Shown: in pieces, positions 1 through 26,470 of the stretch
Numbering within the stretch: the first letter of the stretch is position 1
How the letters are laid out: each line of letters begins with the position of its first letter
NCBI GenBank assembly: GCA_049966915.1
Contig: JBMFTS010000002.1
Span: 1 to 45,542 of the forward strand
DNA length: 45,542 nucleotides
Reading direction: 5' to 3'
DNA from: Candidatus Micrarchaeia archaeon
GTDB taxonomy: Archaea > Micrarchaeota > Micrarchaeia > Micrarchaeales > CABMGC01
The notes under the pieces: model-generated
Database searches by the model: none
What the model saw: the letters and a program-made list of their open reading frames with translations, nothing else
What the model was told of the DNA's origin: nothing
Translations under genes and position numbers: made by a program

Positions 1-782
1 GCCACGAGAAACAGCGACGTGCTTATGTTATCATCAATCCTGATGTCTGCGCTTTCAACCAAAGCGCCGAGCGCGGCAATTGCCAGCGCGTACACGCCGA
101 CGAATGCGTAAGCCAAAGCCGCTACGCACACGAAGTATGCAAGAGCACCCTCAACGCTTTTGTTCCTGTTATACGCCAGGCCGTGCCTGCCGAATTTTAT
201 GCCGATTATTGTGGCGGCGCTGTCGCCGAAAAACAGCGCCATGAACAGCGCGGCAACATATGCCTCTTCGCTTATGAACGAGAGTATGAGCATGGCGCCT
301 AGTGCCAGCCAGAATGCGCCGGAACCGAGAGCCACGTTTTCCCTTTCTAGCGCGCTTATTGCTTTGGCAACGCCCGAATCCGGGCTAATGGCGACGTACG
401 TGCCTATTGTGCCGAGCAGCAAGATCGCCAATGCGAAAAGCACAATCGCATGGGAAACACCAATCGTGTAGAGCAGAAAAAGCACGATCGCGCCTATGAA
501 AATCTGTGTGTAATCCCTACTTATTTCCTTCTCTTTGTTTTTGCGCCCTTCGCGCCGCTTGGAGAACTTGTAAGAGCTTGCGAGCATGCCAAGCATGAGC
601 GCCTGTGCCGCTAAAAGCGGCTCTTGCACAATTGACAATACATAAAATATTGCGAACGGCAGCATTGCAAAATTGTACTTGGAATAGATCGTGTCGGTGA
701 AAGCGGCAATTATTGCAACCCCAGAAATTAGCAGGGGCGCGCTCACGTGTTCTATCGTTGCAAGCGCGAAACCTGCAAGCAT
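1..782 (-). CDS. Polyprenol/dolichol kinase-like membrane protein (CdsA / CTP-dependent kinase superfamily); C-terminus lies beyond the left window edge
   Basis: Absent from the supplied ORF track because it runs off the edge. Manual translation of the minus frame is open from ATG 782-780 to position 3. It reads MLAGFALATIEHVSAPLLISGVAII...ALFMALFFGDSAATIIGIKFGRHGLAYNRNKSVEGALAYFVCV...VESADIRIDDNISTSLFLV. The GDSAA-x4-G-x3-GRH ... KSVEG ... DDN pattern matches the dolichol kinase/CdsA signature as I recall it. It is hydrophobic throughout. In-frame GTG (848) or TTG (887) are alternative starts just after the upstream stop at 900-902. Confidence 0.6.
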   Translation of the reverse strand, partial: MLAGFALATIEHVSAPLLISGVAIIAAFTDTIYSKYNFAMLPFAIFYVLSIVQEPLLAAQALMLGMLASSYKFSKRREGRKNKEKEISRDYTQIFIGAIVLFLLYTIGVSHAIVLFALAILLLGTIGTYVAISPDSGVAKAISALERENVALGSGAFWLALGAMLILSFISEEAYVAALFMALFFGDSAATIIGIKFGRHGLAYNRNKSVEGALAYFVCVAALAYAFVGVYALAIAALGALVESADIRIDDNISTSLFLV

Positions 783-7490: not shown

Positions 7491-8681
7491 ATGCGCGCGC
7501 TTAATATCGGCGTTTTGCTTTTGGCGTTTTTCGCCATGTTCGGGCTTTCAGGCGCAGCCACTACTGCATACGTTTTGCCAAGCTCTTTCATCGCCGCGTC
7601 GCTGCTTGCGCTCACCATATCAATAGACGTAGTCGCTATAGGCTACGTCATTGCAAGGCTTGTGCCAAGCACGGGCATAAGGAGCTGGCTCGACACAGAA
7701 TACTGGGAGCTCGCAAAGAGCGCAATGATAATAATTGGCATATATGCTATCCTGGCATTCATCGGCAGCGTCAGCTTGATTGTTTATAACAGCTATTATC
7801 CAAGCATATCGCATGCCGCAAGCCCTGCATGCGGCTATTCCGCGCAATCCGCAGGCTCATATTCTGCAAGCATAGGCTCGCTAGCATCTGCAGCAGGCTG
7901 CTATCTGAGCAATACGGCAAGCGAAGTGGGCACAGCGATGCAGGACTTTTTCTTTCTTTCAGAGTCGCTGGGCGGCTTAAGAAGCATAACGCTCACAATA
8001 GAGCCTCCGATAGTTCTTCCGGATTTGGTTAATTATCTTCAGTTTGGCTTCTCCACAAAGATTTACGCAAACCAGCTGCTAGAGCAAGGGGTAACTACAG
8101 GCAAGTACGAATCGATGATAAACGACCTGTTTTCCATCATGCTCATACCAATTGCATTGCTCATAGCGGTGCAGCAAGTGGGCTTGGGCTATATAGTTGC
8201 GATAGGCCTGGGCTTTCTCATACCCCTCGGGCTCGTGTTCAGGGCGTTTCCTTTTATAAGGGGCATAGGCGGCACGCTCATAGGCATCGGCGTGGCGCTT
8301 GCGGTGGTATACCCGGCTACGCTTGTGCTGCTCAACATGCCGGTTTCGAACGCGTTCGTGTTTCTGGCGCCGACTACATCTAGTATGACATCCGTAGCGG
8401 CGAGTTCCGGAGTTCCGGTGCTGTTCAATATAGTCGATGCCCTGCTTCCGCCGCCCATAGCTCTCGGCATTCTTGGCGCATCGATCGCTCCTTTATTTGC
8501 ATACGTTGGCGAGATATACACGTTCCTAGACATATACCTTTTCTACGGCACATACTTGCTGCTCCAGTTCCTGCTGTTCATACTCGACCTTGTCATAGTA
8601 TACGCGCTTGGCGATAACATAGCAAGGATGTTAGGCGGCACATTCAGGCTGAGCTTCGGCAACAAGCTCAAGCTCGCGTAG
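7491..8681 (+). CDS. Paralog B of the six-member polytopic membrane protein family
   Basis: Signal-peptide-like N-terminus (MRALNIGVLLLAFFAMFGLSGA) and an extracytoplasmic loop of about 120 aa with two Cys. Motif RAFPFIRGIGG at 8241-8273, followed by TLIGIGVALAVVYP. C-terminal tail ARMLGGTFRLSFGNKLKLA. Confidence 0.8.
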   Translation: MRALNIGVLLLAFFAMFGLSGAATTAYVLPSSFIAASLLALTISIDVVAIGYVIARLVPSTGIRSWLDTEYWELAKSAMIIIGIYAILAFIGSVSLIVYNSYYPSISHAASPACGYSAQSAGSYSASIGSLASAAGCYLSNTASEVGTAMQDFFFLSESLGGLRSITLTIEPPIVLPDLVNYLQFGFSTKIYANQLLEQGVTTGKYESMINDLFSIMLIPIALLIAVQQVGLGYIVAIGLGFLIPLGLVFRAFPFIRGIGGTLIGIGVALAVVYPATLVLLNMPVSNAFVFLAPTTSSMTSVAASSGVPVLFNIVDALLPPPIALGILGASIAPLFAYVGEIYTFLDIYLFYGTYLLLQFLLFILDLVIVYALGDNIARMLGGTFRLSFGNKLKLA

Positions 8682-8689
8682 GTGATGCA

Positions 8690-9868
8690 ATGGCAAACGT
8701 GCTATTGAGCGCTTCCGCGTGCGGTCTTTTGTCACCTAGCGTGAGCATAGGCTACGGCGGCTCGCTTGCTTCTGACTGGCTGCAGATAAACGTGATGCTG
8801 GTGCTGATAATAGTGATGATTTCCAGCCTGCTTTACGCGCTCAGCGCGCTCATGCCTACGCAAAGGCGCGAGAAGCTAAGGGGCGTAGTCCGCTACGAGA
8901 TTTTTGAAGCCATTGTAAGCGTTGTGCTGATATTCATAATAATGGCCATGTCAAGCATGTCGTGTTATATAGGCGCGGGATTGTCGACTTCGGGCACAAG
9001 CAGCGGATATTCTGGCGTTTTCCAGGGGGACGAGCTTTATGTAGGCAATTTGGTGTTTAGCAGGGGTGCTAGCCTTGCCTCGCAGCTTTACACCACTGCC
9101 ATACAATACGCCATAGCTTCGCAGATTGTATCATACGCCGCTTCGCAAATAGACGCGTTTTTTGAAGCCCTTGCCCAAGGAGCGTATGCAATACCTGCAG
9201 TAAACACGAATTCGCTCATAAATATTTATAGCACTTATTCCGGCGTATTTTCGGGATTGTTTGCAGGAATAACCCTTGCAGTATTCAGCGCTTTGTTCAT
9301 TGTGTTCTTGATGTTGCCCGTCGTGCAGGCAATATCGCTTACAGTAATACTTCCTGTGGCGATATTTACAAGGACGCTAGCGTTTACCGGACCCAAGCTC
9401 AGAGAGATTTCCAACACATTCATAGCGCTTGCACTTGGACTTTTCTTCGTGTTCCCGCTAACTATCGCATTCAACGGTTACATCGCCAACTGCATGAATT
9501 TAGGCGTTTCGAATTCGGGCTCCAGCCAGTGCAGCTGGCTCAACACGCAATATCTCACTATTACTCCGCCGCCAATAGCGGTATCATCTTTGTTTACTTC
9601 GACAACTGTATCCGGCGTTAATCTTCCGTTCGATTTCTTTAACGCGATTTCTTCGGCTGGCGCAGCACCAGGCCTGGCAGGCATGTTTTCGCTCATCTTT
9701 GCTGCTCCGACAGTCACACTTAGCTATGCAAATGTGGTGGCAGAGTATGCATTCACCGGGATCGTGCTAATAGCGATAGATTTGCTCATAACCGTCGGTT
9801 TTGTTGCAGGCATAGCAAAAGGGCTTAATGTGATGTCCGGGATAGTCGGAGGAGGTTCGTTCTGGTGA
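8690..9868 (+). CDS. Paralog C (divergent member) of the membrane protein family
   Basis: GGTGAT Shine-Dalgarno-like sequence 4 nt upstream. The aligned motif is FTGPKLREISN (9383-9415), which keeps P4 and R7 but has SN in place of GG. It is followed by TFIALALGLFFVFP with Pro at the same offset. Tail AKGLNVMSGIVGGGSFW. Confidence 0.75.
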   Translation: MANVLLSASACGLLSPSVSIGYGGSLASDWLQINVMLVLIIVMISSLLYALSALMPTQRREKLRGVVRYEIFEAIVSVVLIFIIMAMSSMSCYIGAGLSTSGTSSGYSGVFQGDELYVGNLVFSRGASLASQLYTTAIQYAIASQIVSYAASQIDAFFEALAQGAYAIPAVNTNSLINIYSTYSGVFSGLFAGITLAVFSALFIVFLMLPVVQAISLTVILPVAIFTRTLAFTGPKLREISNTFIALALGLFFVFPLTIAFNGYIANCMNLGVSNSGSSQCSWLNTQYLTITPPPIAVSSLFTSTTVSGVNLPFDFFNAISSAGAAPGLAGMFSLIFAAPTVTLSYANVVAEYAFTGIVLIAIDLLITVGFVAGIAKGLNVMSGIVGGGSFW

Positions 9869-9876
9869 TATGATGA

Positions 9877-11634
9877 ATGCACATGTTTCAAAAGCGGCCT
9901 TTGCGGCTGGTGGTTGTCGTGTTAAAGGTTAGGATTGCGGCTTTAGCTGTTTTGGCAATGCTTGTGCCTTACTCTATGGCGCAGGGCATAGAAATAGCGC
10001 CGCAATCAGCGTTTGGCAATTGGCTTCCAGTCATGTTCGCAGCGGTGCTGCTCAGCATAGTCATAACCTCTGTATACTATGTATTCGGGTACCTGCTAAA
10101 TGACAAGAGGGTAAAAGAAAGGGCAATCACCGAATTTGCACAGGCCATAGGTACTGGAATACTTGTGGTAGTGATAATAGCAGTGTTGGAGCTTGTGGGC
10201 TCTACATTGTTGTCTCCGATATCAGTGCTGTCTGCAGGCAGCGTAAACGGCATTTGCAACAGCCTGGTTAATTCAAAAGTTACATTTCTCAACTCTGCCA
10301 ATTCCGCCTCACCGGTCAATGCCATATGCAACGACATAATATTGCCGTTGGCGTCGGGTTCAAGCAAGCAGTCGCTTACTGACAAGATAGATTACGGGGT
10401 GGCAGCCACTTATGTGGTAATAGCCAATGTCACTAATCAGGCTGCAAACAATCTTGACGCGTTTTATGTATACGACGGCATGATAAGCTTTCTCCGCGAG
10501 CTCACTTCAGTTAACGGCTTCGGCAGCTTCGGCGTGTGGAGCGTAACTTTTCAATATGCTCCTTTGGCAGGCTACAACTTTCTTAGGAAAATGAGCCTCG
10601 CTGTCGGCATAGTAAGCGCGCTAGTCATCGACTCCTTTGCCGCACAGCTCCTGGTAATATTGTTGGTGCTTGTCACGTGGCCGTACGTGCTAGCCGCAGG
10701 CGTAATTTTCAGGGCCACGCCATACACGCGAAGGCTGGGCGGCCTTCTTATAGGAATTGTGCTGGCGTTGCTCGTTATTTGGCCCGTGCTATTTCTGTTT
10801 GAATACGCCTCACTGGGCACTACGCAGTCTTCCTTCCCCATAGGTTCAAACACAATACCGTACACTCCTGTCTATGAACTTATGCCAAACGGCAACGTAA
10901 TGGTTTACGGCGCCTCTTCCGGTTATGAGCAAGTCACTACGCAGAGTATCGCAGGCTGCCCACCAGGCGACTATGTTTACGAAGGAATTTGCGGAGAAGC
11001 CAGTACTGTCGGCTCGCCGCCCGACTGCAAGCTGCCAAGCCAAATTTCGCAATTCCAGATGTGCCAAAACGGCTTCGCTCCAGATAACGCGCTGTGCCAC
11101 AGCGGATCCTATGTATATGAGGGTGTTTGCGGCGATCCGAATACATCTGCCCGTACTGCGCGATGCTTCAACCAAAACCAGGCGGCACAGAGCGGTCTTC
11201 CAATGTGCCCAAGCAGCCCTATTTTGCACGACACCGGAATTGCGCTGTTCCAATTGCCTAACGCTACGGAAACCGTAAAATATTATTCGTGTTGGCCGCC
11301 TTCCGGCAACCTGCCGCAAGCTGAAGCCGAGGCCGCCGCGTTTTACCTAATACCTTTCTTTGGCCTTGGAGCGGCGGCTTATCAAACAATCGCGTCCATC
11401 GTGAGTTCGACGTCGAGCGTATCTAGCATACCGTACTACCCTCCAATCATAACCTGCAGCCCTCAAAACGCTCTCGACACAGGCTTGGCGTTTACCAATA
11501 TCTATGGCATAACAAGCATATCTGCATTCATATTGCCCCTGCTCAACGTGCTAATAATTTACGGCGCCGCAACGAGCTTGTCAAAGCTGCTCGGCGGCGA
11601 AAGCGACATACTGGGCCTTAGCAAACTGATATAG
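9877..11634 (+). CDS. Paralog D, carrying a tandemly duplicated 4-Cys module in an outside loop
   Basis: Motif RATPYTRRLGG at 10711-10743, then LLIGIVLALLVIWP. Tail SKLLGGESDILGLSKLI. A Cys-rich insertion at 10957-11292 is unique to this paralog. Signal peptide ends in SMA-QG. Met3 (9883) is an alternative start. Confidence 0.8.
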   Translation: MHMFQKRPLRLVVVVLKVRIAALAVLAMLVPYSMAQGIEIAPQSAFGNWLPVMFAAVLLSIVITSVYYVFGYLLNDKRVKERAITEFAQAIGTGILVVVIIAVLELVGSTLLSPISVLSAGSVNGICNSLVNSKVTFLNSANSASPVNAICNDIILPLASGSSKQSLTDKIDYGVAATYVVIANVTNQAANNLDAFYVYDGMISFLRELTSVNGFGSFGVWSVTFQYAPLAGYNFLRKMSLAVGIVSALVIDSFAAQLLVILLVLVTWPYVLAAGVIFRATPYTRRLGGLLIGIVLALLVIWPVLFLFEYASLGTTQSSFPIGSNTIPYTPVYELMPNGNVMVYGASSGYEQVTTQSIAGCPPGDYVYEGICGEASTVGSPPDCKLPSQISQFQMCQNGFAPDNALCHSGSYVYEGVCGDPNTSARTARCFNQNQAAQSGLPMCPSSPILHDTGIALFQLPNATETVKYYSCWPPSGNLPQAEAEAAAFYLIPFFGLGAAAYQTIASIVSSTSSVSSIPYYPPIITCSPQNALDTGLAFTNIYGITSISAFILPLLNVLIIYGAATSLSKLLGGESDILGLSKLI

Positions 11635-11641
11635 TGGTGAC

Positions 11642-12832
11642 ATGCGAGCGAGCCGTGCTTTGATGTTTTTTGTCATGTCGTTGCTGCTTTTGTCACTTTC
11701 AAAAGCAGGCATAGGCATACCTACAATATATTCGCCTGTTTCAGCCCAAGCTGCACCTACACTTGCCAATAGCTTTGACAACGCGCTTATGCCCGTATGC
11801 TCCAGCATGATTGCCCCGCTTTCTGGTTTAGGCGGCAGCTATTCTGCGCTGCTGAGCATTTCACTGGCCATAGTGTTTATGGTGCTGACAATACTGGGCG
11901 TAGTGTATGCAATAGGCAGGGCTTTCGGCATACCGGTGCTCATGGAGTTCGTCAAAAAAGAATACTTGGAAAGCATTTTCAACATAGTGCTCATAGTTAT
12001 TGCCGCAGGCGGCTTGGGGTTTGCCGACGCGTCGGTGTCATTTCTTAGCAATCTCGCACTCAGCTCATCGGCAACAGGCCAAGCAAGCGTCAGCAGCATA
12101 AGCAGCGCCAACAGCCTGTATCTTACCCTGTGCAATACATATCTTAGGAATGGCATAACTTACGGCCTAGTCGACATAGTTGTTTTGGTAGGCCCAAACA
12201 TTATAGACTCATCAATGTTGCAAAATCTTAGGGTGAGCATAGGAAACACTAGCGAAGACAATCCGCTGGGCGTTTCTGTGTCGTTTTCGCCTTTCGCTGG
12301 CATATATCCATATGTGCAAGTGCTTTCCGCAGAAAACAATGCAGTTTATGCAATGATTGCGGTATATTTGGGCATAAGTTTCTTGCTTGCAATAATATAT
12401 GGCATATTTCCGCTGCTGTTCTATGCCGGCATACTCCTGAGGTCTTTTCCATGGACGCGCGCTGCCGGAGGCGCGCTGCTTGCGCTTTTCATCTCCTTCT
12501 TCATAGTTTTTCCTAGCATACTTTTCGCATTTGCTAATGCGCCGTCAAGTTACGGCGAGTCATCAGCAAGCATATATACTGGAATTGCTGGCTTTTTTGG
12601 AACAATTGCTAGCTTTTTTGGACCAGCAGTAAGCGGCATACTTGCCGGTATAGGTGCAACATCAATAATTTCGGAAATGGAATCATTTGTCAGCGTATTC
12701 GCCTATGGCGCTTTGCAGTTGCTAGGCTTGATTGTCGCCCTGCTTGTGTCGTTCGATCTTCTGGAGAGCCTTGGCGATCTGCTCGGCGCGCCGTCGCTTC
12801 AGAGCAGGAGCCTGCTTAAAAACGTGATATGA
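11642..12832 (+). CDS. Paralog E of the membrane protein family
   Basis: GGTGA precedes the ATG. Motif RSFPWTRAAGG at 12440-12472, then ALLALFISFFIVFP. Tail GDLLGAPSLQSRSLLKNVI. N-terminus looks like a signal peptide. Confidence 0.8.
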   Translation: MRASRALMFFVMSLLLLSLSKAGIGIPTIYSPVSAQAAPTLANSFDNALMPVCSSMIAPLSGLGGSYSALLSISLAIVFMVLTILGVVYAIGRAFGIPVLMEFVKKEYLESIFNIVLIVIAAGGLGFADASVSFLSNLALSSSATGQASVSSISSANSLYLTLCNTYLRNGITYGLVDIVVLVGPNIIDSSMLQNLRVSIGNTSEDNPLGVSVSFSPFAGIYPYVQVLSAENNAVYAMIAVYLGISFLLAIIYGIFPLLFYAGILLRSFPWTRAAGGALLALFISFFIVFPSILFAFANAPSSYGESSASIYTGIAGFFGTIASFFGPAVSGILAGIGATSIISEMESFVSVFAYGALQLLGLIVALLVSFDLLESLGDLLGAPSLQSRSLLKNVI

Positions 12833-13797
12833 TGCTGCCCGTTGCCACAATGATGTTAAGCATTTACAGCGTAATGACGTCGCCGGTCTACGCATGGTTC
12901 CCTGTCGCTATAGCCGGCGCAATTGCCATTATCGCAGTATTGGCGCTGGTATACGAGCTTAGTCCATTTTTCGGAAGAACAGACCTGCGCGCGTGGGCCA
13001 AAATAAAGATGTACGAGGTATTTTTCTCGATAGTTCTCATATTCGTGTTTTTCGCTTTCATGGCCGTATTTTCCAGCATAAACTTCGGGAGCACATTGGG
13101 CCAGCTCGCTCCTAAGGATTGTGCGAGCAACTTCGACATCTATGCTCTTTCGATGTGCGACCTTAACCATTTCCAAAGCTACGTGGCGCAGTTCAACAAT
13201 CTGGTGTTCGTGGCCATGTTTTCTACTGTTCCAAGTACCGAAATAGGGGTAAAATTGCCTGATTTTTCAGCTTCAACTAGCATTTCTGGCGCGGATGCCG
13301 CATTCGGGTTCTCATTTGTGGAATTGAGCATACTTTTCGCGTTTTACATGCTTAGCGACGTTCTTCTTTTGCTGCTATCGGTCTCACTTCTGCTTTTTGC
13401 AGTGTTCATGGCGATTGGTCTTATTTCCAGGATTTTCGAGGTAACAAGGACTTTTGGCGGGGCAATGATCGCCTTCGGAATAGGCTTGGGTATGCTATTT
13501 CCGTTGCTTATCGCTTTGTCGTACGGCTTTGTCGACGTTGCCGTTTCCAAAGCAGCTAGCCTAGTTACCATTTCTGGTTTGGAGAGTGCCTTGCTAGGTA
13601 TCATTTTCGCTCCGCTTGGCGCGGCCCTTGCTATCGATGCGTTAGTAAACTTTTTTGTATTTGCCGGTTATATTATAGCAGGCATAGTGTTCCTGCCAAT
13701 TTTTACGCTTACAATAGTGGACGTCTTTATACGTGACTTTTCAAGGGCGGTCGGCGAGCAGATGAATTTTATGAGCATATTGACAAACATGATATGA
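12829..13797 (+). CDS. Paralog F of the membrane protein family
   Basis: ATGA start/stop overlap with paralog E. Motif RIFEVTRTFGG at 13429-13461, then AMIAFGIGLGMLFP. Tail SRAVGEQMNFMSILTNMI. C-x11-C pair (CASNFDIYALSMC) in the first outside loop. Confidence 0.8.
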   Translation: MMLPVATMMLSIYSVMTSPVYAWFPVAIAGAIAIIAVLALVYELSPFFGRTDLRAWAKIKMYEVFFSIVLIFVFFAFMAVFSSINFGSTLGQLAPKDCASNFDIYALSMCDLNHFQSYVAQFNNLVFVAMFSTVPSTEIGVKLPDFSASTSISGADAAFGFSFVELSILFAFYMLSDVLLLLLSVSLLLFAVFMAIGLISRIFEVTRTFGGAMIAFGIGLGMLFPLLIALSYGFVDVAVSKAASLVTISGLESALLGIIFAPLGAALAIDALVNFFVFAGYIIAGIVFLPIFTLTIVDVFIRDFSRAVGEQMNFMSILTNMI

Positions 13798-13815
13798 GGC
13801 GATGATACGGACAAG

Positions 13816-14910
13816 TTGCCTACTCTAGTTTATGCAATCGTGTTTATTTCGCTGTTATTCGGCATTTCATTAGCCAGAATCATCACAGCCCCGCCGCCAC
13901 CGCCTCGTGTCGTTGGTTCTACAGTGTCATCGTGCCCGCAGATTGCGCAGGCAGTCGCTCCATGGTATTGCAACCAGATAAATCAGGCTGCGGCAGCGAT
14001 ATGGGCCAAGTGGGAACCGATAGCTGCGGTAGCGGCATTTGCATCTTTTGTCCTTGCAGTCATAATATTCACAATAGGCATAGCAATAAGGAACAACAAG
14101 GTCAAGGAATTCGGAATAGGTGAAATGTACGAGGCGGTTGCCACTATTATCATGGTGGTGATGTTTCTGTTCATCTCCGCTACAATGTTTGGAATACTGC
14201 CTGCAATTACGACCGGAAATATAGATCCATATACTGTTGCGCTTACATACATAAGCAAAAACATAAACGAGACGCTATACCTGCAAAGAATAATGTTTAA
14301 TTCTTATATGATAGGCAGTTATTATGCATCCATATCCCTGATCGTAAGTATTGGCGATTCGTCAATACCGATTTCAATGCTGTGGAACTTGCCGGTAACT
14401 GTTTATTATTTGCTCCCGGTAGACGCAATTTCTTCAATTGTTCTGGAAGCATTGCTTCTGCTTTATACAGAATTCTACATGATACTTTTCTTCATGTATG
14501 CCAGCATACCTGTGTTTCTTATACCGGGCATAGTGCTTAGGGCGCTGTTCCCGACGCGCAGCGTTGGCGGGATGATGATTGCCATAGCAATCGGCTTTTA
14601 CTTTATCATGCCAATTCTGTTTGCCGTTGCGTTCTACTTTACTAGTTCGAGTGCGCTGGCTTCTGTATACTCCGGTGCGCAAGCAATAGCGGCTAACGGC
14701 CAGGGCAGCTCGAGCATAACAAACGCCATAAGCCCGACAAGCCCGCTTGTTCTAGCGATCAAGAACATACAAAGTGGAATGGGGGCCTATTGGATGAGCA
14801 TACTGTTTTATCCTGCGCTTATAATAGCCATAGTATACGAAAGCATAATGGTCATCGGAGAATTTATAGGCGGATTTGCGAAATCATCTGGATTGCTCAG
14901 GGCGATATAG
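13816..14910 (+). CDS. Paralog G of the membrane protein family
   Basis: TTG start with GAGG 17 nt upstream. Motif RALFPTRSVGG at 14539-14571, then MMIAIAIGFYFIMP. Tail GEFIGGFAKSSGLLRAI. An APPPPPR stretch and a C-x11-C pair (CPQIAQAVAPWYC) follow the N-terminal helix. Confidence 0.75.
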   Translation: MPTLVYAIVFISLLFGISLARIITAPPPPPRVVGSTVSSCPQIAQAVAPWYCNQINQAAAAIWAKWEPIAAVAAFASFVLAVIIFTIGIAIRNNKVKEFGIGEMYEAVATIIMVVMFLFISATMFGILPAITTGNIDPYTVALTYISKNINETLYLQRIMFNSYMIGSYYASISLIVSIGDSSIPISMLWNLPVTVYYLLPVDAISSIVLEALLLLYTEFYMILFFMYASIPVFLIPGIVLRALFPTRSVGGMMIAIAIGFYFIMPILFAVAFYFTSSSALASVYSGAQAIAANGQGSSSITNAISPTSPLVLAIKNIQSGMGAYWMSILFYPALIIAIVYESIMVIGEFIGGFAKSSGLLRAI

Positions 14911-14911
14911 C

Positions 14912-15808
14912 ATGCAAGAGTCAAGCACGTTGAAAAAGCTAGGCAAGTCGAGCATATCGGCTACCGACCTGGCGAGCCAGTTTTGGTGCGAAAAGCAGAT
15001 GGAGCTTAATTACCTCTACGGAAGAAAGTACACCGAAGAAATGCGCAAGGGCAGGCAGATGCACGCGGACTTGCAAGCAGAGGTTTTCGTGCCGTTGAAC
15101 ATAGAGCCAGTAACCTATGCCGATTTTTTGTACAAGACAGGCTACGAGGACTACATGGCGCTCAAGACGCTCGGCCAGAAAGGCGTTTGCAGGGAGCTGC
15201 GCATTTACGGCTCTGTAAGCGGCTACAGGATCGTAGGCCAGATAGACGAATTGCGCATGGAAGATGGCAAGGTCAGGATTTTGGAGTTGAAAACCGTGCA
15301 ACCAAACGGCGCGAAGCCCGCTGTAGATTCCGCGCGCGCCAAGCCGCATATAGTGCAGATAATGACATACAAAAAGCTACTTGAAGACATAAGAAGCGGC
15401 CGCTACACGCTGCGCAATTTTTCAAATTCTTACGGCATAAAAGAAAAAAAGGTTTCTGACACATTTGCAAGGGCCCTGCATGCAATAGGCGTGAAGGACG
15501 AACTTTTCGACCTGGAAAAAATCTACGGGCTGGTTTTTGACGAGATTCGCTCTTTGCCAGAGATAAGCGAGAAGCTTGAAATATATTATATCGACAGGTT
15601 TACCGGCATGCGCTCAAGCAGCATAATAATAAATTATGATGAGAAAAAAATATACGATGAGTTGGTTTTTGCCATGCAATACTGGAGCGGCAAGCGCGAG
15701 GCTTTGCCTGTGAGCAAGGACGAAGTCTGGAAGTGCAACCTTTGCAAGTTTTACGGCAAGGAATGCACAGTATGGTGGCCAAAACCTGGCAAGGAAGAGC
15801 GTGCGTAA
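14912..15808 (+). CDS. Cas4-like PD-(D/E)XK exonuclease with a 4-Cys cluster (DUF83/RecB-like), stand-alone
   Basis: N-terminal Cys (SQFWCEKQ). Catalytic GQIDEL...VRILELKT (D...ExK). QIMTYKKLL (QxxxY). C-terminal CNLCKFYGKEC. ATG 14912 lies 1 nt after the paralog G stop; the upstream start in the ORF track (14876) would overlap G. Confidence 0.8.
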   Translation: MQESSTLKKLGKSSISATDLASQFWCEKQMELNYLYGRKYTEEMRKGRQMHADLQAEVFVPLNIEPVTYADFLYKTGYEDYMALKTLGQKGVCRELRIYGSVSGYRIVGQIDELRMEDGKVRILELKTVQPNGAKPAVDSARAKPHIVQIMTYKKLLEDIRSGRYTLRNFSNSYGIKEKKVSDTFARALHAIGVKDELFDLEKIYGLVFDEIRSLPEISEKLEIYYIDRFTGMRSSSIIINYDEKKIYDELVFAMQYWSGKREALPVSKDEVWKCNLCKFYGKECTVWWPKPGKEERA

Positions 15809-15809
15809 C

Positions 15810-18482
15810 ATGGCAGAGAATAACGAAATGAGCAAGGATAAGTTGCGCGAAGAATTCGGCAAGAATTACGAGAAGCATTACAAAGTCAAGCTGTTCGAAG
15901 AAGAAGGCTTTGAAAGGAAGAAATGCGCAATCTGTGGCAGGTATTTCTGGACCGCGGATCCCGAAAGGACCGTTTGCGAAGACTCTGCGCACACGCCTTA
16001 TGGCTTTTTCAAGGATAAACCAGAAAAGATTTCTTACGAGGAGTTTTGGGACAGGTTTAGCGGCTTTTTTAAGTCAAACGGCCACGCCATAATAAAGCGC
16101 TACCCGGTAGTAAGCAGGTGGAGGCAGGACCTTTATTTCACCATTGCGGGCATACAAGATTTTCAGCGCATAGAAAACGGCGTAATGGGGTTCGAATATC
16201 CTGCGAATCCGCTGCTTGTGCCGCAGATGTGCCTGCGCTTCAACGACATAGAAAACGTGGGCATCACCGGCCGGCATTTTACGTCTTTTATGATGGCCAA
16301 CCAGACCGCTTTCAACTGGCCAAAAGAAGGCTATTGGAAGGACGAGACCATAGCGCTCAATTTCGGCTTGCTTACTAAAGTGCTTGGGCTTAAAAAGGAA
16401 GACATAGTTTACCACGAAGACGTTTGGGCCATGCCAGATTTTTCGGAATTCGGCCCTAGCCTTGAGACATTTTCGAAAGGCCTTGAAATCGTAAACAGCG
16501 TATTCACAGAATTCGAATACGCGAACGGCCAAGTGCGTGACCTCAAAAACAAGGTGATAGATGTCGGCTGGGGTTTTGAGAGGGCTTTGTGGTTTTATAC
16601 AGGTTACGACAATGCTTATGAAGCCGCATTCCACAGCGTAGTGGAGCGCATAGGCAGGGAAAGCGGAATAAGCATAGACACAAAACTTTACCGCAAATTT
16701 GCGGAGCTTGCAGGTTCGCTTGACATAACCGAAATGCAAAACATAGGCGGCAAGATAGAAGCAATACTGGCCAGGGCTGGCATTTCAAAAGAGCAGTACG
16801 AGCGCGAGATAAAGCCGGTGCAGGGAATTTACGCGATAGTAGACCATGTCAGGACTTTGCTTTTTGCGGTAACAGACGGCGCGCTTCCATCAAATATCGG
16901 CGGTGGCTACAACCTTCGCGTAATATTACGCAGGGCTTTCGAGTTCGAAAAGGCCTATGGGATAAAGATGGGCCTAGCCGATATCGCAAAAATGATTGCA
17001 GGCGAGCTAAAGGGCATTTACCCCGAGCTTTCAGAAGGCATAGACACGTTCGGCAAGGTAGTGCAGGTAGAGAGTGGCCGCTATGCAAAGACAATGGAGA
17101 ACGCCGCAAAGATTGCGGCTTCGGTGCTCAGCAAGGAAAAGGAAATAAGCAAGGCCGAGCTGAGAAAGCTGTACGAGAGCAACGGCATTACGCCGGAGAT
17201 GCTCGAGCAGGTGGCGCTTTCGAAAGGCATGAGCATAAAACTTCCTGAAAACGCATACTCCAGCATACTTGTCGGGGACATGGTGAAAAAGGAAAAGGCG
17301 GCTAAAATAGAGATGGGCGGCGCCGAACACGAGCTTGGTTCGCTTCCCAAGACGAAACAGCTTTTTTATGATTTTGTTACTAGGTCGAATTCAAAAGTAG
17401 TTTACGCCAAAGGCGCGTATGTTGTTCTAGACTCCACTCCTTTCTATCCGGAAGGCGGCGGTCAAGCTCCCGACTTGGGCACCATAGGCGGCGCGAGAGT
17501 AGTCGATGTGCAGAAGGTCGGGGACGTAATAGTGCACGTGCTTGGCGAGCCCAAGCGCCTTGGAGTTGGAGAAACAGTTAGCGCAGAAGTGGATGAAGAT
17601 AGAAGAAACAGGCTGATAGCACATCATACGGCCACGCATTTGATAAGCGCTGCTGCAAGGAAAGTCCTAGGAAAGCACGCATGGCAGGAAGGCGCCAAGA
17701 AAGAACCGGATAAGGCGCACATAGACATAGCGCACTATGAAAGGCTAAGCGACAAGGAGCTCGATGCAATAGAAAACCAGGTAAACGCATGGCTTCTAGC
17801 AGGCATAAAAGTGGAAGCCAATGTAATGGGCCGCGGCGAAGCGGAAAGCAAGTACGGCTTTTCCATATACCAGGGCCATGGCGTCCCAGCAAAGGAGATG
17901 CGCATAATAACTATAAAATCAAAAGACGGCAACCTCATAGACGCCGAAGCCTGCGGCGGCTTGCACGCTGTAGGCCGCGAGTACCTCATAGGCCTAGTTA
18001 AAATTATAAGCAGTTCGCGCATACACGACGGAGTAGACAGGATAGAATTTGTCGCCGGCAAGTCAGCTGCCGAATATTTCCAGAAAGAGCACAGGGCAAT
18101 TGCCAGCATGTCGAGCAAGCTCAATGCAGATTTCTACGGGGCGGAGAAAAAGCTAGACGAGCTGCTCGAGTCAAACGCCAGGAACGCGAAAGCATACGAG
18201 AAGGGCGTGGAAGCTCTTGCGCGCGCGGTCGCATCTGCTTACAACGGCCAAAGCGAGCTGGTGCTTTCCATAGACCTGCCTGCCGAAATTCTTGTAAAGG
18301 TCGCAAACGAGATTGCAAAGGGCAACAGCAAGTCGGTCGTGCTGCTAGAGAACAAGGAAGGCAATGTCGTGTGCATAGCAGGCAAAGATTCCGGCAAGAG
18401 CGCGCTGGAGTTTGTGAAGGGCAAGGTTCCGGGCTTCAGTGGAGGCGGCAGCGACAAGTTTGCGCAGGGAAAGAAAAAATAA
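15810..18482 (+). CDS. alaS: Alanine--tRNA ligase, archaeal type
   Basis: About 890 aa. N-terminal CAICGRYFWT Zn motif. Editing-domain HHTATHL and CGGLHA motifs. ATG 15810 is preferred over the in-frame GTG 15801 that overlaps the Cas4-like stop. Confidence 0.93.
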   Translation: MAENNEMSKDKLREEFGKNYEKHYKVKLFEEEGFERKKCAICGRYFWTADPERTVCEDSAHTPYGFFKDKPEKISYEEFWDRFSGFFKSNGHAIIKRYPVVSRWRQDLYFTIAGIQDFQRIENGVMGFEYPANPLLVPQMCLRFNDIENVGITGRHFTSFMMANQTAFNWPKEGYWKDETIALNFGLLTKVLGLKKEDIVYHEDVWAMPDFSEFGPSLETFSKGLEIVNSVFTEFEYANGQVRDLKNKVIDVGWGFERALWFYTGYDNAYEAAFHSVVERIGRESGISIDTKLYRKFAELAGSLDITEMQNIGGKIEAILARAGISKEQYEREIKPVQGIYAIVDHVRTLLFAVTDGALPSNIGGGYNLRVILRRAFEFEKAYGIKMGLADIAKMIAGELKGIYPELSEGIDTFGKVVQVESGRYAKTMENAAKIAASVLSKEKEISKAELRKLYESNGITPEMLEQVALSKGMSIKLPENAYSSILVGDMVKKEKAAKIEMGGAEHELGSLPKTKQLFYDFVTRSNSKVVYAKGAYVVLDSTPFYPEGGGQAPDLGTIGGARVVDVQKVGDVIVHVLGEPKRLGVGETVSAEVDEDRRNRLIAHHTATHLISAAARKVLGKHAWQEGAKKEPDKAHIDIAHYERLSDKELDAIENQVNAWLLAGIKVEANVMGRGEAESKYGFSIYQGHGVPAKEMRIITIKSKDGNLIDAEACGGLHAVGREYLIGLVKIISSSRIHDGVDRIEFVAGKSAAEYFQKEHRAIASMSSKLNADFYGAEKKLDELLESNARNAKAYEKGVEALARAVASAYNGQSELVLSIDLPAEILVKVANEIAKGNSKSVVLLENKEGNVVCIAGKDSGKSALEFVKGKVPGFSGGGSDKFAQGKKK

Positions 18483-21578: not shown

Positions 21579-22310
21579 CTATCCTTTTAGTTCCAGGTAG
21601 CCTAGGCTTACCATCTTGTCAAGTATCTGCTCCACCCTGGGCTCGGGTATCTTGTACGTTTTTGAAAATTCTCCTATGTCTATCGTGCTGTCGTGCACTT
21701 CAAGCCAATCCTGCACCATCGCCATTAGCGCTTCGTCCGAATATGTTTGCAGGGCGTTGAGCTGTTCCTGCAGTTTCTTGTTTTCCTCGCTCAGTTGCGA
21801 AGCCTGTATGGTCAGGTTGTGGTTCGATACTGTGAGCTCGCTCGCAAGTTTTCTCAGTTCGGCGTATTCCGCCAATAACGCGTCGTACTTGTTGAAAAGC
21901 GAACTGTAGTTTTCGTTGAGCCCGTCGAGCAATTCCGTTATTGACGAATCCACATATTGGAAGAACTTCTGCTGGTCCACCCTGAAATCGTCGGCTATCA
22001 CGGCAAGCATTCCTGCCACATTTTTGATTACAGTAGCACGGCGCATCCTCTCGCTAGTATTCGGCACTATCGAATAGGTGAGAAATACGCCGTCTTTTCT
22101 CAGCTTGACAATGTAAAACAGAAAAGGCTCCTTCCTAACATTCCTGCTTTCTACGTGCACTACATCTAGTTCGTCTGCGCTCTGGGTTATGGAATAGAAC
22201 GGGATCTGTGCGAGTTTTGCGCGTATAGCGTCAAAGCTGCTTACCACTGACCCCGGAAATTGCACCTCTTCGACTTTCGGTTCAGGTATTTCTTCTTCGG
22301 CCACTCTCAA
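21579..22310 (-). CDS. Cytoplasmic coiled-coil protein with a C-terminal winged-helix-like domain
   Basis: TTG start preceded by GGAGG. The central heptad-rich segment is NKYDALLAEYAELRKLASELTVSNHNLTIQASQLSEENKKLQEQLNALQ. C-terminus is IGEFSKTYKIPEPRVEQILDKMVSLGYLE. Confidence 0.65.
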   Translation of the reverse strand: MRVAEEEIPEPKVEEVQFPGSVVSSFDAIRAKLAQIPFYSITQSADELDVVHVESRNVRKEPFLFYIVKLRKDGVFLTYSIVPNTSERMRRATVIKNVAGMLAVIADDFRVDQQKFFQYVDSSITELLDGLNENYSSLFNKYDALLAEYAELRKLASELTVSNHNLTIQASQLSEENKKLQEQLNALQTYSDEALMAMVQDWLEVHDSTIDIGEFSKTYKIPEPRVEQILDKMVSLGYLELKG

Positions 22311-22504: not shown

Positions 22505-22897
22505 TCAGCGTTTGCCAGTGTGCCTACTTTGCGCCGTTGCCGCGTTTTCCTGTTTGGGCATCTTAAGCTTGGGCGTGTAACTGAGCAACGAAAACGCGTA
22601 AAGCAGCGCAGTTACGAGTATGCCTACTCCGAGCGCGTAAAGCTTGTCCGATGCCACGAACAGCGAGAACAGCGTGAAAATAATACCCAGTGCAAGGTAG
22701 AGTTTTTCCCTGCCTTCATATTTTTTGCGCATAATTGCGTATTTCGGGTAGCACTCTTTGCAAACGACCAATCTGTTTCCTTGTTCGTTCTTTGTAACGT
22801 TCCTTTTGAACCATCTTATTGTGTTTATGACCCAGTCCTGCTCTACTTCTATACCCTGCTTTTCCTCGCCGCAGACTATGCAAATGCTCTTTGCCAT
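22505..22897 (-). CDS. Zn-ribbon protein with a C-terminal 2-TM hairpin
   Basis: CIVCGEEK...VCKECYPKY (CxxC...CxxC), followed by LYLALGIIFTLFSLFVA and ALGVGILVTALLYAFSLL. The ATG shares one nucleotide with the upstream TAA (TAATG). Confidence 0.65.
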   Translation of the reverse strand: MAKSICIVCGEEKQGIEVEQDWVINTIRWFKRNVTKNEQGNRLVVCKECYPKYAIMRKKYEGREKLYLALGIIFTLFSLFVASDKLYALGVGILVTALLYAFSLLSYTPKLKMPKQENAATAQSRHTGKR

Positions 22898-23196
22898 TAT
22901 GATCCCAGCTCAAGCTCTACGAGCTTTCCGTATTCTTTCTTTATCTTTTCTTCGTCGAGCATGTTCATGACGTTGGTTATTGTCACGTCGTCTATTCCCA
23001 AGCGTCTTAGCACGTTCACTACTTGCTCGGTCTTCAGCCCGGATTTTTCTAGAAGCCCGGCAAATGACACTGCGTTTACGTGCCTGTGCTGCTTGTTGAG
23101 CTCGCCGAGCAGTTCCTGCACTGTTTTTTCGCTCACTCCTATGAGCGTAAGCATGCGCTGGAGCTTCTGTCGCGACACAGTGAATGTGGCTCCCAT
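22897..23196 (-). CDS. Small soluble protein, a paralog of the C-terminal tail of the adjacent ATPase
   Basis: Start taken at Met14 (MGATFTVSRQ...), which removes the overlap with the ATPase gene. The segments MLTLIGVSEKTVQELLGELNKQH and LLEKSGLKTEQVVNVLRRLGIDDVTITNV align with ATPase residues about 435-498. Confidence 0.6.
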   Translation of the reverse strand: MGATFTVSRQKLQRMLTLIGVSEKTVQELLGELNKQHRHVNAVSFAGLLEKSGLKTEQVVNVLRRLGIDDVTITNVMNMLDEEKIKKEYGKLVELELGS

Positions 23197-23218
23197 ATTG
23201 TTTACCTTGTTTGCATTG

Positions 23219-24724
23219 TCAAGTAACGTACACAAATGCCCTTGTTATTACCGAATCGGGCAGGCCTATCGCCCTGAGAAAGCCGACTATTGCTTCCTTG
23301 CTTACCTGCTTGCCCAAAAGCAGCTGCACGAGGCTTCTTACGTCGGCAAGCCTGCCTTTTGCGTCCAGCTGTTTGAAAACGTCCTCTATGATTTCAGACC
23401 CGACGTTGTTTTCTATCAGCTTTGCGCTTATGTCCGCCTTTTCAAGGAAGTATTCCTTTTGCACGGTTTCGTCGGCGAGCTCGCTCTGGCTCAGTATGTC
23501 TGCAACGTTTATTGTATATACGTCTAGCGGCACCTCTCCAACAACCCTGTCGAGCAGAAATATTTCTGGAAACTCCACATTGGTTTGAAATGACATGTCG
23601 ACTGCCGCCTGGCCCACTCCGAACTTGCTTATTTCGCGCCTCATAAACTCGGAAAAATTGAGCGAGCCCTGCAGATAATCGAGGAAGCGCTCGAATCTTA
23701 TTCTTAAGATTATGTTAGTGCCAACGTTTGAAAATATTGCTTCGTTTATGTCAGTGGGGTTTTGCGATGCCACGATAAGGCCAAACTGGTATTTGCGGCC
23801 TTCCCTTATTATCGTCACCGCGTCGCTTCGCTCGTCGCTTGCTATCTTCCATGCTTCGTCGAGCACGACAAGCGCCTTGAGTCCTTTGGTGGCAGACCAG
23901 CCCTCCATTCGCATTTTTTCTTTAAGCGTTTGCAATATGAACAATGCAGCAAGCGCCCTAAAGCGCTCGTCAGGCAGGCCGGAAAGGTCTATGTCCACGA
24001 GGCCTGAGCTAGAGAGCTTGCCAAGGTCTATTGTGCTCTTTCTTGCGAAATAGTCCTCGCCCTCCCTTGCAAACTGCCTGAGCCTGTATACCGCGTTTTC
24101 TAGTTCGGCCGGATACTCGTAAGTGCCTCCCTGCAGCTGCTCCTCAAGAAGCGATATCACCTCCTTGAGCGTTGGCGCCTCTTTGCCCACTTGCGGCGTT
24201 TCTGCCAGGTTGAAGCCCGCATTCACGTATGCCTGCTCTAAAGCCTCTTCGGTAAGCCTCTTCTGTTCTGGATAGTCGCTTATGTCGGTAAGTATCTCCA
24301 GAGAAGTAAGTATCTGCTTGGCGCGGTCGAGCGGTTTCATGCCAGAAAGGTCCATTATGTTGAGATAGTCCCCTTTGCCCAGAGAGACTATCGTGCCGCC
24401 GCTCTGCTTTACCCACGCTTTGTATTCGCCGGCCCAGTCTATTATTATTGCGTTGGTATTCCAGATGAAGCTGGCCCTCGCGAGGAAAGTCTTGACGAAG
24501 AAGCTCTTGCCTGCGCCGGTTATGCCAACTACTGCTATGTGCGGATTTGTAAGGTTTGAAAAGGTCCATGTGAAAGGCACGCTGAAAAGCTTTGTTATGC
24601 CTATGAATATGGAATTGGTCGGATCGTTAAGCAAATAGTCCGCAGGCGGCTCTGGAGGCCTGCTCAATATAGTCCTTTTGCCGAGCTCGTTGCTCATTAT
24701 GTTTTGCAAGCGTAAAAGGCCCAT
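23219..24724 (-). CDS. VirB4/HerA-like (FtsK-HerA superfamily, DUF87-type) P-loop ATPase
   Basis: Walker A GITGAGKS (24503-24526). Walker B VVLDEAWK (23855-23869 covers VVLDE). Also REGRKYQFGLIVASQNPTDI, typical of HerA/VirB4/TraC-like translocases. At 501 aa, with the P-loop at residue about 70, it lacks a long VirB4-type N-domain. Confidence 0.8.
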   Translation of the reverse strand: MGLLRLQNIMSNELGKRTILSRPPEPPADYLLNDPTNSIFIGITKLFSVPFTWTFSNLTNPHIAVVGITGAGKSFFVKTFLARASFIWNTNAIIIDWAGEYKAWVKQSGGTIVSLGKGDYLNIMDLSGMKPLDRAKQILTSLEILTDISDYPEQKRLTEEALEQAYVNAGFNLAETPQVGKEAPTLKEVISLLEEQLQGGTYEYPAELENAVYRLRQFAREGEDYFARKSTIDLGKLSSSGLVDIDLSGLPDERFRALAALFILQTLKEKMRMEGWSATKGLKALVVLDEAWKIASDERSDAVTIIREGRKYQFGLIVASQNPTDINEAIFSNVGTNIILRIRFERFLDYLQGSLNFSEFMRREISKFGVGQAAVDMSFQTNVEFPEIFLLDRVVGEVPLDVYTINVADILSQSELADETVQKEYFLEKADISAKLIENNVGSEIIEDVFKQLDAKGRLADVRSLVQLLLGKQVSKEAIVGFLRAIGLPDSVITRAFVYVT

Positions 24725-24767: not shown

Positions 24768-25592
24768 CTATTTCTGCACTGAAAATTCAAGCTCGAGCTC
24801 CTGCTCGCCTGGCAGCGCGTAATTGAACTGAAACAGCGAGTAAAGCTCCCTGCCAACGACGCGAGTTATGCTGAGGTCGAACCCGCCGAATACCGTTTGC
24901 AAGTGGTCGAGCTGCGAAGACAGGCTGTCAAGTGCCTCCTTTTCGCTCACGCCCACGGCCGTGCTTTCTATGTACATTAGCGCATTTATCGGCCTTTCGC
25001 CGCTGGAGAGCCTATCTATTCGAGTTTGTATTATGTTTATTCGCCTCTGCAAGTCCTCTATTGTGAGTTGGCTTGGCGTAGTTGAACTCATTTCCCTTGA
25101 CAGCTGGAATTCAAGCGCGCCCCTTCTCGCTTCAAGCTCGTCCCTGTACTTTTGCAGGTCTTCGGCAAAGCAGACAATGTCATACTTGAAAGGAAACGTT
25201 ATGTTTTGCACTATGCGCTCCCAGTTGTTGGGGCCCTCTGCAAGCAGCGTTTCTTCGCCTTCCTGTATCTGCTCTACAGTGAACACGTAGTTGTATATGT
25301 TGGCAGTGAGGTAGCCTGTGGCATAGTACACGCCGTTTACGTATTTTATTATTGCGTTGTTGGCCTTTGGTATGTAGTAGTCTTTTGCGGGTATTTGCTT
25401 TATGTTTAAAATTGTGGTAAAAAGCGGGAACAGCAGAAAATCAGCGTAATTTATTATGAAAAATGCCAGTATGGCAAGTATTGCAAGGACTGCCACGATT
25501 ATGGCCGCTGAGCCGTACGCTGCCGACGCCATTGCAACAAGTATCGCTATTATCGAGCATGTTGCTAAATAAAATATGGTATTGGCGTCCAT
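24768..25592 (-). CDS. 2-TM membrane protein with a ~200-aa soluble domain (paralog of 25593-26435)
   Basis: Two N-terminal helices, then a soluble domain with a coiled-coil-like stretch (YRDELEARRGALEFQLSRE). By eye it aligns with the upstream gene: NYADFLLFPLF vs YYAYLFAPLL, NNAIIKYVNGVYYATGY vs GNAIVTKRGSEFYVSAF, and VGVSEKEAL vs SGASEEEAT. Confidence 0.7.
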   Translation of the reverse strand: MDANTIFYLATCSIIAILVAMASAAYGSAAIIVAVLAILAILAFFIINYADFLLFPLFTTILNIKQIPAKDYYIPKANNAIIKYVNGVYYATGYLTANIYNYVFTVEQIQEGEETLLAEGPNNWERIVQNITFPFKYDIVCFAEDLQKYRDELEARRGALEFQLSREMSSTTPSQLTIEDLQRRINIIQTRIDRLSSGERPINALMYIESTAVGVSEKEALDSLSSQLDHLQTVFGGFDLSITRVVGRELYSLFQFNYALPGEQELELEFSVQK

Positions 25593-26435
25593 TTACACAC
25601 CCAAAGACGCTACTTTTTCCTGCATTTGCTCGCTTATAGTCGCAAACGGTATCATCTCGTCAGGCTCCAGCGCGCTAAGAAATTCCTTTGATTCCATTAT
25701 GTACGCGCTTACGCCCAGCGTGGCACTGACTCCGGCAGCAAGTTCATCGGCTTTTTGCATGGCTATTGTCGTGGCTTCCTCTTCAGAAGCCCCGCTTGCA
25801 GTAACCATGGCAAGCGTGCTCATTGCATTGGATCTTACCCTGCTTACAGAGTCGAGCAGGTTTCTCCACATAGTCACTTCGCCCTTGGCTCTCTCAAGAT
25901 CAGGGTTTGCCTGCGCCGGATTTGCCTGGTTATTCAGAGTAGCATAGCGCGCTTCGGCGTCATTGAGCTTGTTGCGTATCTCGCTTATGTACTCGTCCTT
26001 GTTTATTACATAGAGCATGGTCGTGAATTTTACGGGCTCTTTGCTCACCGTAAGGACTTTTGAAAATGCCCTGGCGAATTCCACGCGTTCGTCCTCGGTC
26101 ATTTCGGTAGCGGACTTATAGATTGGTATTTTTACAAACGCGCTTACATAAAACTCGCTGCCGCGCTTTGTTACTATGGCATTGCCGTTTGGGGAAATTC
26201 TAAATGCAGAATCTTCGCTAAGCACAAGCGTTTTGTTTTTTGCATGCAGCAGCGGCGCAAACAGATACGCGTAGTATTTTGTCGAAAATGCCACGACGTC
26301 AAACAGCAGTGCAAGCACGGCAAACACTGCTCTTACATATGCCGGCAAAGTCAAAAAGTATACTAGCAGCACAAAGGTGAAAGATACGAGCACAAGCGCG
26401 AAAAAGATGCTCCTGCTTGAGAGTGTCATTTGCAC
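25593..26435 (-). CDS. 2-TM membrane protein with a ~200-aa soluble domain (paralog of 24768-25592)
   Basis: GTG start at 26435, or ATG at 26429. Its stop TAA directly abuts the ATG of the next gene. Same architecture as the downstream paralog. Confidence 0.7.
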   Translation of the reverse strand: MQMTLSSRSIFFALVLVSFTFVLLVYFLTLPAYVRAVFAVLALLFDVVAFSTKYYAYLFAPLLHAKNKTLVLSEDSAFRISPNGNAIVTKRGSEFYVSAFVKIPIYKSATEMTEDERVEFARAFSKVLTVSKEPVKFTTMLYVINKDEYISEIRNKLNDAEARYATLNNQANPAQANPDLERAKGEVTMWRNLLDSVSRVRSNAMSTLAMVTASGASEEEATTIAMQKADELAAGVSATLGVSAYIMESKEFLSALEPDEMIPFATISEQMQEKVASLGV

Positions 26436-26458: not shown

Positions 26459-26470
26459 ATATTTATAAAG
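26459..26470 (-). promoter_or_regulatory. TATA-like box (ctttataaatat on the minus strand) upstream of 25593-26435
   Basis: A strong TTTATAAATA element about 30 nt upstream of the start codon, within a 72-nt intergenic gap. This suggests a leaderless internal transcription start. Confidence 0.45.

Follow-up and report, generated by a model that had tools for sequence, protein, structure and literature searches.

Two adjoining paralogous membrane proteins of Micrarchaeota as candidate detached N-terminal domains of a VirB4/CedB-type ATPase

A membrane anchor and a VirB4-type N-terminal domain (NTD) are already known in several arrangements: fused to the motor in CedB/CedD, with the anchor separate or fused in VirB3-VirB4, and as a free N-like protein in TrsD. 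In R388, the NTDs of VirB4 (TrwK residues 15–400, 385 amino acids (aa); PMC9259494) form a membrane-proximal ring that binds VirB3 and mediates the oligomer contacts, with pairing of the central and outer subunits (PMC9259494, PMC12857230). CedB and CedD, from the Ced DNA import system of the Sulfolobales, carry transmembrane (TM) helices, an NTD with structural homology to parts of that of VirB4, and the ATPase in one chain; archaea lack VirB3 and VirB8, and use the TM helices on the CedB/CedD ATPases instead (PMC11868833). TrsD is a stand-alone protein of ∼220 aa, with a remote relationship to VirB4's N-terminal part, and is encoded between a VirB3-like 2-TM protein and a DUF87/VirB4 ATPase; systems of this type are widespread in Patescibacteria, and essential in one tested strain of these ultrasmall epibiotic bacteria (PMC12102498). 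Finally, the Ted system of the Thermoproteales (TedA/TedB/TedC) is an archaeal type IV secretion system (T4SS) derivative, in which the pilin resembles VirB2, the channel VirB6 and the ATPase VirB4 (PMC9905601). Here I analyse two adjoining genes, A2 and A1, in a 45,542-nucleotide (nt) stretch of contig JBMFTS010000002.1 from a Candidatus Micrarchaeia archaeon (assembly GCA_049966915.1, genome size ∼0.68 Mb), hereafter referred to as the window. Both encode a TM hairpin followed by a soluble domain, and they lie directly upstream of the gene for a VirB4/CedB/HerA-superfamily ATPase. Micrarchaeota are ultrasmall archaea with reduced genomes that live attached to other archaea, their hosts, from which they take material.

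The A2 and A1 proteins are probably membrane-anchored adaptors, corresponding to the detached TM anchor and N-terminal domain of a VirB4/CedB-type ATPase, duplicated in tandem. An initial annotation of the window had proposed a split equivalent of VirB3 and the VirB4 N-domain; this is largely supported by the fold search, by NCBIfam matches to N-terminal regions and by gene order, but the archaeal CedB/CedD proteins are a better comparator than bacterial VirB3 and VirB4. The order of parts is that of CedB/CedD, namely membrane helices, a ∼200-aa VirB4-NTD-like domain and a HerA/VirB4-type ATPase (PMC11868833). The window ATPase also scores best against the CedD and CedB models, relatives of A2 and A1 match CedB positions 11–214, and there are two paralogous NTD-bearing units in each system. 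In contrast to CedB/CedD, the TM hairpin and NTD are here separate from the motor, one ATPase is shared by two NTD proteins in place of two complete ATPases, the channel position is taken by six paralogs and not by CedA/CedE, and the host of this putative transport system is a DPANN symbiont.

The likeness to VirB3 and VirB4 (TrwM and TrwK in R388, fused in some plasmids) consists in a 2-TM hairpin protein encoded directly before the ATPase, in the best fold matches of A2, which are to TrwK, and in a gene order (B6-position, B3-position, B4) that is also found in prgH-prgI-prgJ of pCF10 (PMC12857230). A hairpin, a short helix and a place before the ATPase gene are present as in VirB3, but A2 and A1 are ∼30 kDa proteins with an extra domain, whereas VirB3 is 10–15 kDa and has no large domain; the VirB4 NTD, for its part, has ∼385 aa and is covalently joined to its motor. 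TrsD of the TrsC-TrsD-TrsE systems (pSK41/pGO1-type, Patescibacteria) is a precedent for a free-standing VirB4-N-like protein. However, TrsE (672 aa) has retained an N-region of its own, and TrsD lacks both a TM hairpin and any detectable similarity to A1 or A2. The same minimal gene set as in Ted, plus the adaptor, is found around single-copy relatives of A2 and A1, but TedB is a full VirB4-like protein and a split adaptor is not described for Ted. What is new here is the combination of a TM hairpin and an N-domain in one chain, the separation of that chain from the motor, and its duplication; a literature search found no description of an A2/A1-ATPase system in Micrarchaeota.

As the initial annotation had stated, both proteins start with two TM helices followed by a domain of about 200 aa. 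A short third helix follows the hairpin, and the remaining ∼215 aa form an alpha/beta domain with a long helical hairpin. In the template-free AlphaFold (AF2) model of A2, with a predicted local distance difference test (pLDDT) score of 77.6, the soluble part has a beta-beta-alpha-beta core interrupted by a two-helix hairpin (residues 144–197), then a beta-alpha unit and small terminal helices. The A1 model shows the elements in the same order, but at low confidence (pLDDT 64). The two proteins are 22% identical over 206 aa (BLASTP, E 7e-5), in an alignment that pairs all four sequence blocks that had been matched by eye. Their family profiles, built from 35 sequences each, align end to end over 227 columns (hhalign probability 94%, E 1.3e-7), and the family hidden Markov models each detect the open reading frames (ORFs) of the other family in related loci (E 1e-6 to 1e-13, from a small set of ORFs). 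On these alignments, A1 and A2 are true paralogs.

Both families are large, consist of Micrarchaeota proteins all labelled hypothetical, and in the case of A2 count more than 100 members. I used a merged profile of both soluble domains to search 1.84 billion representative sequences, which returned 209 proteins; the 150 of these that were listed are all at most 366 aa long and share the TM-plus-domain layout. Of 201 genomes sampled from the phylum, 178 contain a match to this superfamily profile (134 of the 152 of high quality), and genomes of the same family and order usually hold three copies. In a FastTree phylogeny, with a rooting and class thresholds too crude to date the duplication, the A2 sequences form a clade (support 0.99) that is nested with A1-like ones. 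An anti-phage HerA defence system was considered and rejected: A1 and A2 have no PADLOC match, and the cluster is near-universal in the phylum, unlike defence islands.

The adjoining ATPase matches DUF87 (2e-18), AAA_10 and P-loop_TraG in Pfam, and CedD (NF053655; 2e-20), the CD1110 VirB4 (7e-17), CedB (1e-16) and TraC (5e-15) in NCBIfam. All NCBIfam matches are far below the curated equivalog cut-offs (72.8 bits against 600 for CedD, 60.4 against 700 for CedB), and it is therefore not a CedB or CedD ortholog. Sequence matches in the PDB are to HerA (3e-11) and to the VirB4 C-terminal domain (CTD) structure 4ag5 (1.5e-7); those in PADLOC are to the generic HerA/DndH/mad8 P-loop only. Residues ∼50–370 align to positions 423–712 of 792 in VirB4_CagE, 424–738 of 800 in TraC and 394–672 of 752 in CD1110, as well as to the crystallised domain of 4ag5, and CedB is covered at positions 228–324 and 432–532. 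Since the Walker A motif starts at residue 69, there is no room for a VirB4 NTD or for the HAS barrel of HerA. By its alignments, the protein is the C-terminal motor half of VirB4/TraC/CedB only, in line with the earlier remark that it lacks the VirB4 N-domain. In precomputed Pfam annotation, TrwK-like VirB4 proteins carry PF03135, PF27097 and PF19044, and two models cover the NTD.

A2 and its relatives may resemble the missing half. I compared the A2 model with 350,542 PDB chains using Foldseek, and the eight best matches are all to R388 TrwK/VirB4 (E 8.5e-3 to 0.12, probability 0.89–1.00, TMq 0.27–0.36). The output gives no aligned residues, but the 50 best matches listed include neither the motor-only VirB4 structure 4ag5 nor any HerA/FtsK structure, and the similarity would therefore lie in the TrwK NTD.

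I also scanned 106 members of the superfamily against 18,950 NCBIfam models. The models most often matched were CedB (NF041017; 12 members at E≤1, best E 3.4e-4) and the Mycoplasma-ICE VirB4 (7 members, best 4e-4); TraC was matched by one member (E 2.7e-4), and no other model by more than four. The matched models describe VirB4-type ATPases, although the queries have no P-loop, and all matches listed with coordinates are N-terminal (model positions ∼11–220) and collinear (Table 1). The adaptors cover the N-region of CedB and the ATPase positions 228–532, and together they therefore tile one CedB, with a break near position 214–228. The signal is weak for the A1 family, where CedB, level with a coiled-coil model, is matched in 4 of 35 members (best E 0.028). 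The link of A2 to VirB4/CedB comes from the fold search and from its homology to A1 and the superfamily. Taken together, the fold and sequence similarities of A1 and A2 to the VirB4/CedB N-regions are weak but convergent.

Gene order points the same way. A sample of 80 Micrarchaeota loci, onto which the window proteins were mapped with phmmer, shows A2 followed directly by A1 in every locus, always as genes separate from that of the ATPase. In 66 of the 80 loci the ATPase follows downstream on that strand; six of the others end too early, which makes it 66 of the 74 that are informative. The conserved order for which the initial annotation had suggested a test is found. The canonical arrangement starts with the six polytopic membrane paralogs memA-F, continues with A2, A1 and the ATPase, and ends with a 112-aa protein, a zinc-ribbon/2-TM protein, a coiled-coil protein and a protein of ∼750–780 aa. 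The last four follow the ATPase in 54–61 of the loci with their order unchanged. By their place, memA-F may stand where VirB6 or CedA would sit. In the window, A2 and A1 are joined stop to start, as had been noted, and a 43-nt gap separates A1 from the ATPase gene. The TATA-box-like TTTATAAATA upstream of A2 suggests an archaeal promoter for a (near-)leaderless A2-A1-ATPase transcript.

The distant members of the superfamily are single. In each case the gene of a short DUF87 ATPase comes immediately after, and wherever its start is recorded, the adaptor gene abuts or overlaps it. In three of the five outside loci (L091–L093) the adaptor follows a polytopic protein and a 120–140-aa protein that matches TrbC/VirB2 or T4SS_pilin (E 1.4e-5 to 1.7e-3); B2, B6-position, B3-position, B4 is the order of Gram-positive T4SS operons (PMC12857230). 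A third paralog of 236 aa is encoded on another contig (C7) of the genome studied here (hhalign probability 96%, E 4e-9 against the A1+A2 profile), and its gene overlaps the start of that of a 352-aa DUF87 ATPase. It belongs to a second minimal T4SS-like module, in which a 123-aa VirB2-like protein (TrbC, PF04956, E 0.025) and a ∼330-aa polytopic protein precede the paralog, and the ATPase is followed by proteins of 228 aa and 149 aa and by a 750-aa P-loop protein matching HerA_C. In locus L094 (1–6995), from one distant relative, two proteins of giant size (>1640 aa and 1432 aa) occupy the place of the membrane paralogs and are followed immediately by the adaptor and a 501-aa DUF87 ATPase; the two could be channel or surface proteins that have fused.

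If A2 and A1 are such adaptors, their hairpins would sit in the cytoplasmic membrane beside the polytopic paralogs, which would form a channel or platform. Their alpha/beta and helical-hairpin domains would assemble in the cytoplasm, probably as a hetero-oligomer, into the ring made by the NTDs in VirB4, and this ring would dock the hexameric motor-only ATPase beneath the channel in the VirB6 position. ATP hydrolysis could then drive the transport of DNA or another macromolecule. A heteromeric A2/A1 ring may be analogous to the pairing of central and outer VirB4 subunits in R388; I infer the physical interaction of A1/A2 with the ATPase, its stoichiometry, the cargo and the direction of transport.

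A number of results weigh against this interpretation, and the two families of the window itself have the weakest evidence behind them. No member of the A2 family (0 of 35) matches the CedB model, and the CedB matches elsewhere in the superfamily are individually weak, far below the 700-bit cut-off and partly in coiled-coil or hydrophobic segments that attract spurious matches. The Pfam family PF03135 (CagE_TrbE_VirB) was found neither in A1 and A2 (E≤1), nor in the 35 A2 family members or a six-frame translation of the whole genome (both E≤10). Comparing the superfamily alignment (106 members, effective number of sequences (Neff) 6.4) by hhalign with a shallow alignment of 36 TrwK-like VirB4 sequences (at least 53% identical to TrwK) gave no significant result (E 0.11, probability 0.5%), and restricting it to the NTD (P 0.045) was no better than a CTD control (P 0.059). 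The A1 and A2 families and the superfamily were equally negative against TrwK as a single sequence. The TrsD model NF041427 matched no archaeal protein, though it recognises pSK41 TrsD (1e-67), and hhalign of the superfamily against that TrsD returned a probability of 0.2%. VirB3 models did not match A1 or A2, with only PrgI (E 1.4) in 2 of 35 and IncI1 TraP (E 0.045) in 1 of 35 members. Of the comparisons with the VirB4 N-domain, the fold search gave borderline E-values, above 1e-3, and TM-scores below 0.4, and the profile-profile searches gave no signal. The poor A1 model had no significant Foldseek match, and no fused adaptor-ATPase ("Rosetta stone") protein occurs among the 150 superfamily proteins listed of 209; a connection to fused proteins was obtained solely via the CedB and VirB4 models of NCBIfam.

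Such results would be expected if A2 and A1 were coiled-coil membrane proteins of a new and unrelated family, with composition producing the VirB4/CedB signals and another membrane process behind the linkage to a HerA-like ATPase. PDB sequence searches with the A1, A2 and superfamily profiles, which gave noise or coiled coils only, fit this explanation, as does the behaviour of short hydrophobic pilin models, which match at E≤1 in 11–12 of 14 control genomes. (PF18895 and PF04956 gave no hits in searches of the genome studied here.) I nevertheless consider it improbable, as the models matched most often are of VirB4 type, three different ones with collinear N-terminal coordinates, an independent fold search puts only TrwK on top, and the neighbouring ATPase is itself VirB4/CedB-like, leaving a small chance of coincidence. 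Pfam, PHROGs and PADLOC hold no family for A1 or A2, and scans of these databases and of NCBIfam returned no match to an unrelated known family.

A different objection comes from the eight loci with no ATPase within 1.9–8 kb (L028, L038, L039, L048, L049, L055, L059 and L065). All are broken exactly after A1: A2 and A1 keep their place beside the membrane paralogs, and the ATPase ortholog is found in another part of the genome; five of these genomes were tested, and each encodes a 70–79% identical ATPase at another site, 136 kb away in the complete chromosome behind L028. Together with memF, which precedes A2 in 70 of the 80 loci, this also counts against a docking role, and suggests that A2 and A1 could be components of the same machine with a role in the polytopic module (its assembly, gating or stabilisation), their likeness to VirB4/CedB being real but unrelated to motor binding. 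This seems unlikely in view of the single-copy adaptor genes that overlap or abut the start of the ATPase, the tiling of the CedB model by adaptor and ATPase, and the lack of a membrane anchor in the ATPase itself. A more basic possibility is that the soluble domains are extracytoplasmic, as VirB8-like or pilus-associated parts. The positive-inside signal of A1 is indeed ambiguous, with few lysine or arginine residues on either side and an acidic N-terminus. The composition nevertheless favours a cytoplasmic location: per 100 aa, the soluble domains of A1 and A2 have 0.4–0.6 N-x-S/T sequons, and 24% of their residues are charged, as in the ATPase (0.4 sequons, 24%) and unlike the two ectodomains encoded in the window (4.2–5.1 sequons, 11–12%). 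In A2, lysine and arginine are clustered after the second TM helix (mean 2.7, compared with 0.4 in the loop), a signal peptide is absent, and a two-helix hairpin places the N- and C-termini on the same side. An extracytoplasmic location is, on this evidence, very improbable.

The adaptor interpretation would turn three "hypothetical proteins" and a "DUF87 ATPase" into a testable T4SS/Ced-like apparatus, with A2 and A1 as the missing membrane and N-terminal half of the motor, within a cluster that is among the few large, conserved and unannotated membrane machines in Micrarchaeota genomes. It would extend the CedB/CedD-VirB4 relationship beyond the Crenarchaeota, and would provide a VirB4 naturally cut at the NTD-motor boundary, useful for dissecting the enigmatic role of the VirB4 N-domain. 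The parallel to the essential T4SS of epibiotic Patescibacteria makes the cluster a candidate for host-interaction machinery. A bolder and only tentative proposal, which I regard as a possibility and not as the expected outcome, is that Micrarchaeota, and possibly other DPANN archaea, possess a near-universal, chromosomally fixed T4SS-derived machine, in which VirB4 is divided between a motor and interchangeable N-domain subunits with membrane anchors (A2/A1), on a six-paralog channel, as a counterpart of the Patescibacteria T4SS and a conduit for the exchange of DNA or macromolecules with hosts.

Table 1. Coordinates of A2, A1 and neighbouring features, and alignment ranges of superfamily members on NCBIfam models. 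Positions are those of the window unless another contig, a locus or a residue range is given.
Feature	Position	Strand	Remarks
A2, upstream paralog	25593..26435	-	280 aa from GTG; 278 aa from ATG 26429 (form on record)
A2 TM hairpin	aa 5-25 + 30-48		
A2 short helix	aa 51-61		
A2 soluble domain	aa 62-278 (nt 25596-26246)		alpha/beta, with helical hairpin
A1, downstream paralog	24768..25592	-	274 aa; adjoins the ATPase
A1 TM hairpin	within aa 3-48		
A1 short helix	aa 50-62		
A1 soluble domain	aa 63-274 (nt 24771-25406)		
Stop-start junction A2/A1	25590..25595	-	TAAATG (TAA, then ATG); sequence read
TATA-box-like TTTATAAATA	26460..26469	-	∼30 nt upstream of the A2 start; sequence read
VirB4/CedB/HerA-superfamily ATPase	23219..24724	-	501 aa; Walker A GITGAGKS aa 69-76; ∼130-aa C-terminal extension
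112-aa protein	22897-23235	-	conserved downstream partner
Zinc-ribbon/2-TM protein	22505-22897	-	conserved downstream partner
Coiled-coil protein	21579-22310	-	conserved downstream partner
Glycoprotein-like bitopic protein, 779 aa	19070-21409	-	conserved downstream partner
memA-F, six tandem polytopic membrane paralogs	7491..14910	+	directly upstream of A2, same strand, in most relatives (e.g. L009, L016, L021, L023)
Second minimal T4SS-like module	contig C7 ∼10750-17680		locus L098 3756-10676
P0243 on CedB	aa 17-219		model 11-198; E 3.4e-4
P0258 on CedB	aa 165-242		model 143-213
P0264 on CedB	aa 151-230		model 137-214
P0001 (A1) on CedB	aa 145-209		model 122-178; E 0.14
P0251 on VirB4_plasma	aa 10-182		model 34-220
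P0256 on VirB4_plasma	aa 100-160		model 141-200

In the window and in its closest relative (L005), memA-F have moved ∼10 kb away and are inverted. Their place is taken by a pilin with a class III signal, a Thr-rich glycoprotein and a CBS protein; the pilin/glycoprotein pair is found in only 2–3 of the 80 loci. In two other loci, L008 (8867–10415) and L083 (2181–3711), the ATPase gene is in two or three ORFs, which may reflect frameshifts or assembly errors. Finally, ∼2.7 kb of the window (3800–6500) contain no ORF of at least 100 aa and show positive GC and AT skew, and this segment is probably a ribosomal RNA gene.

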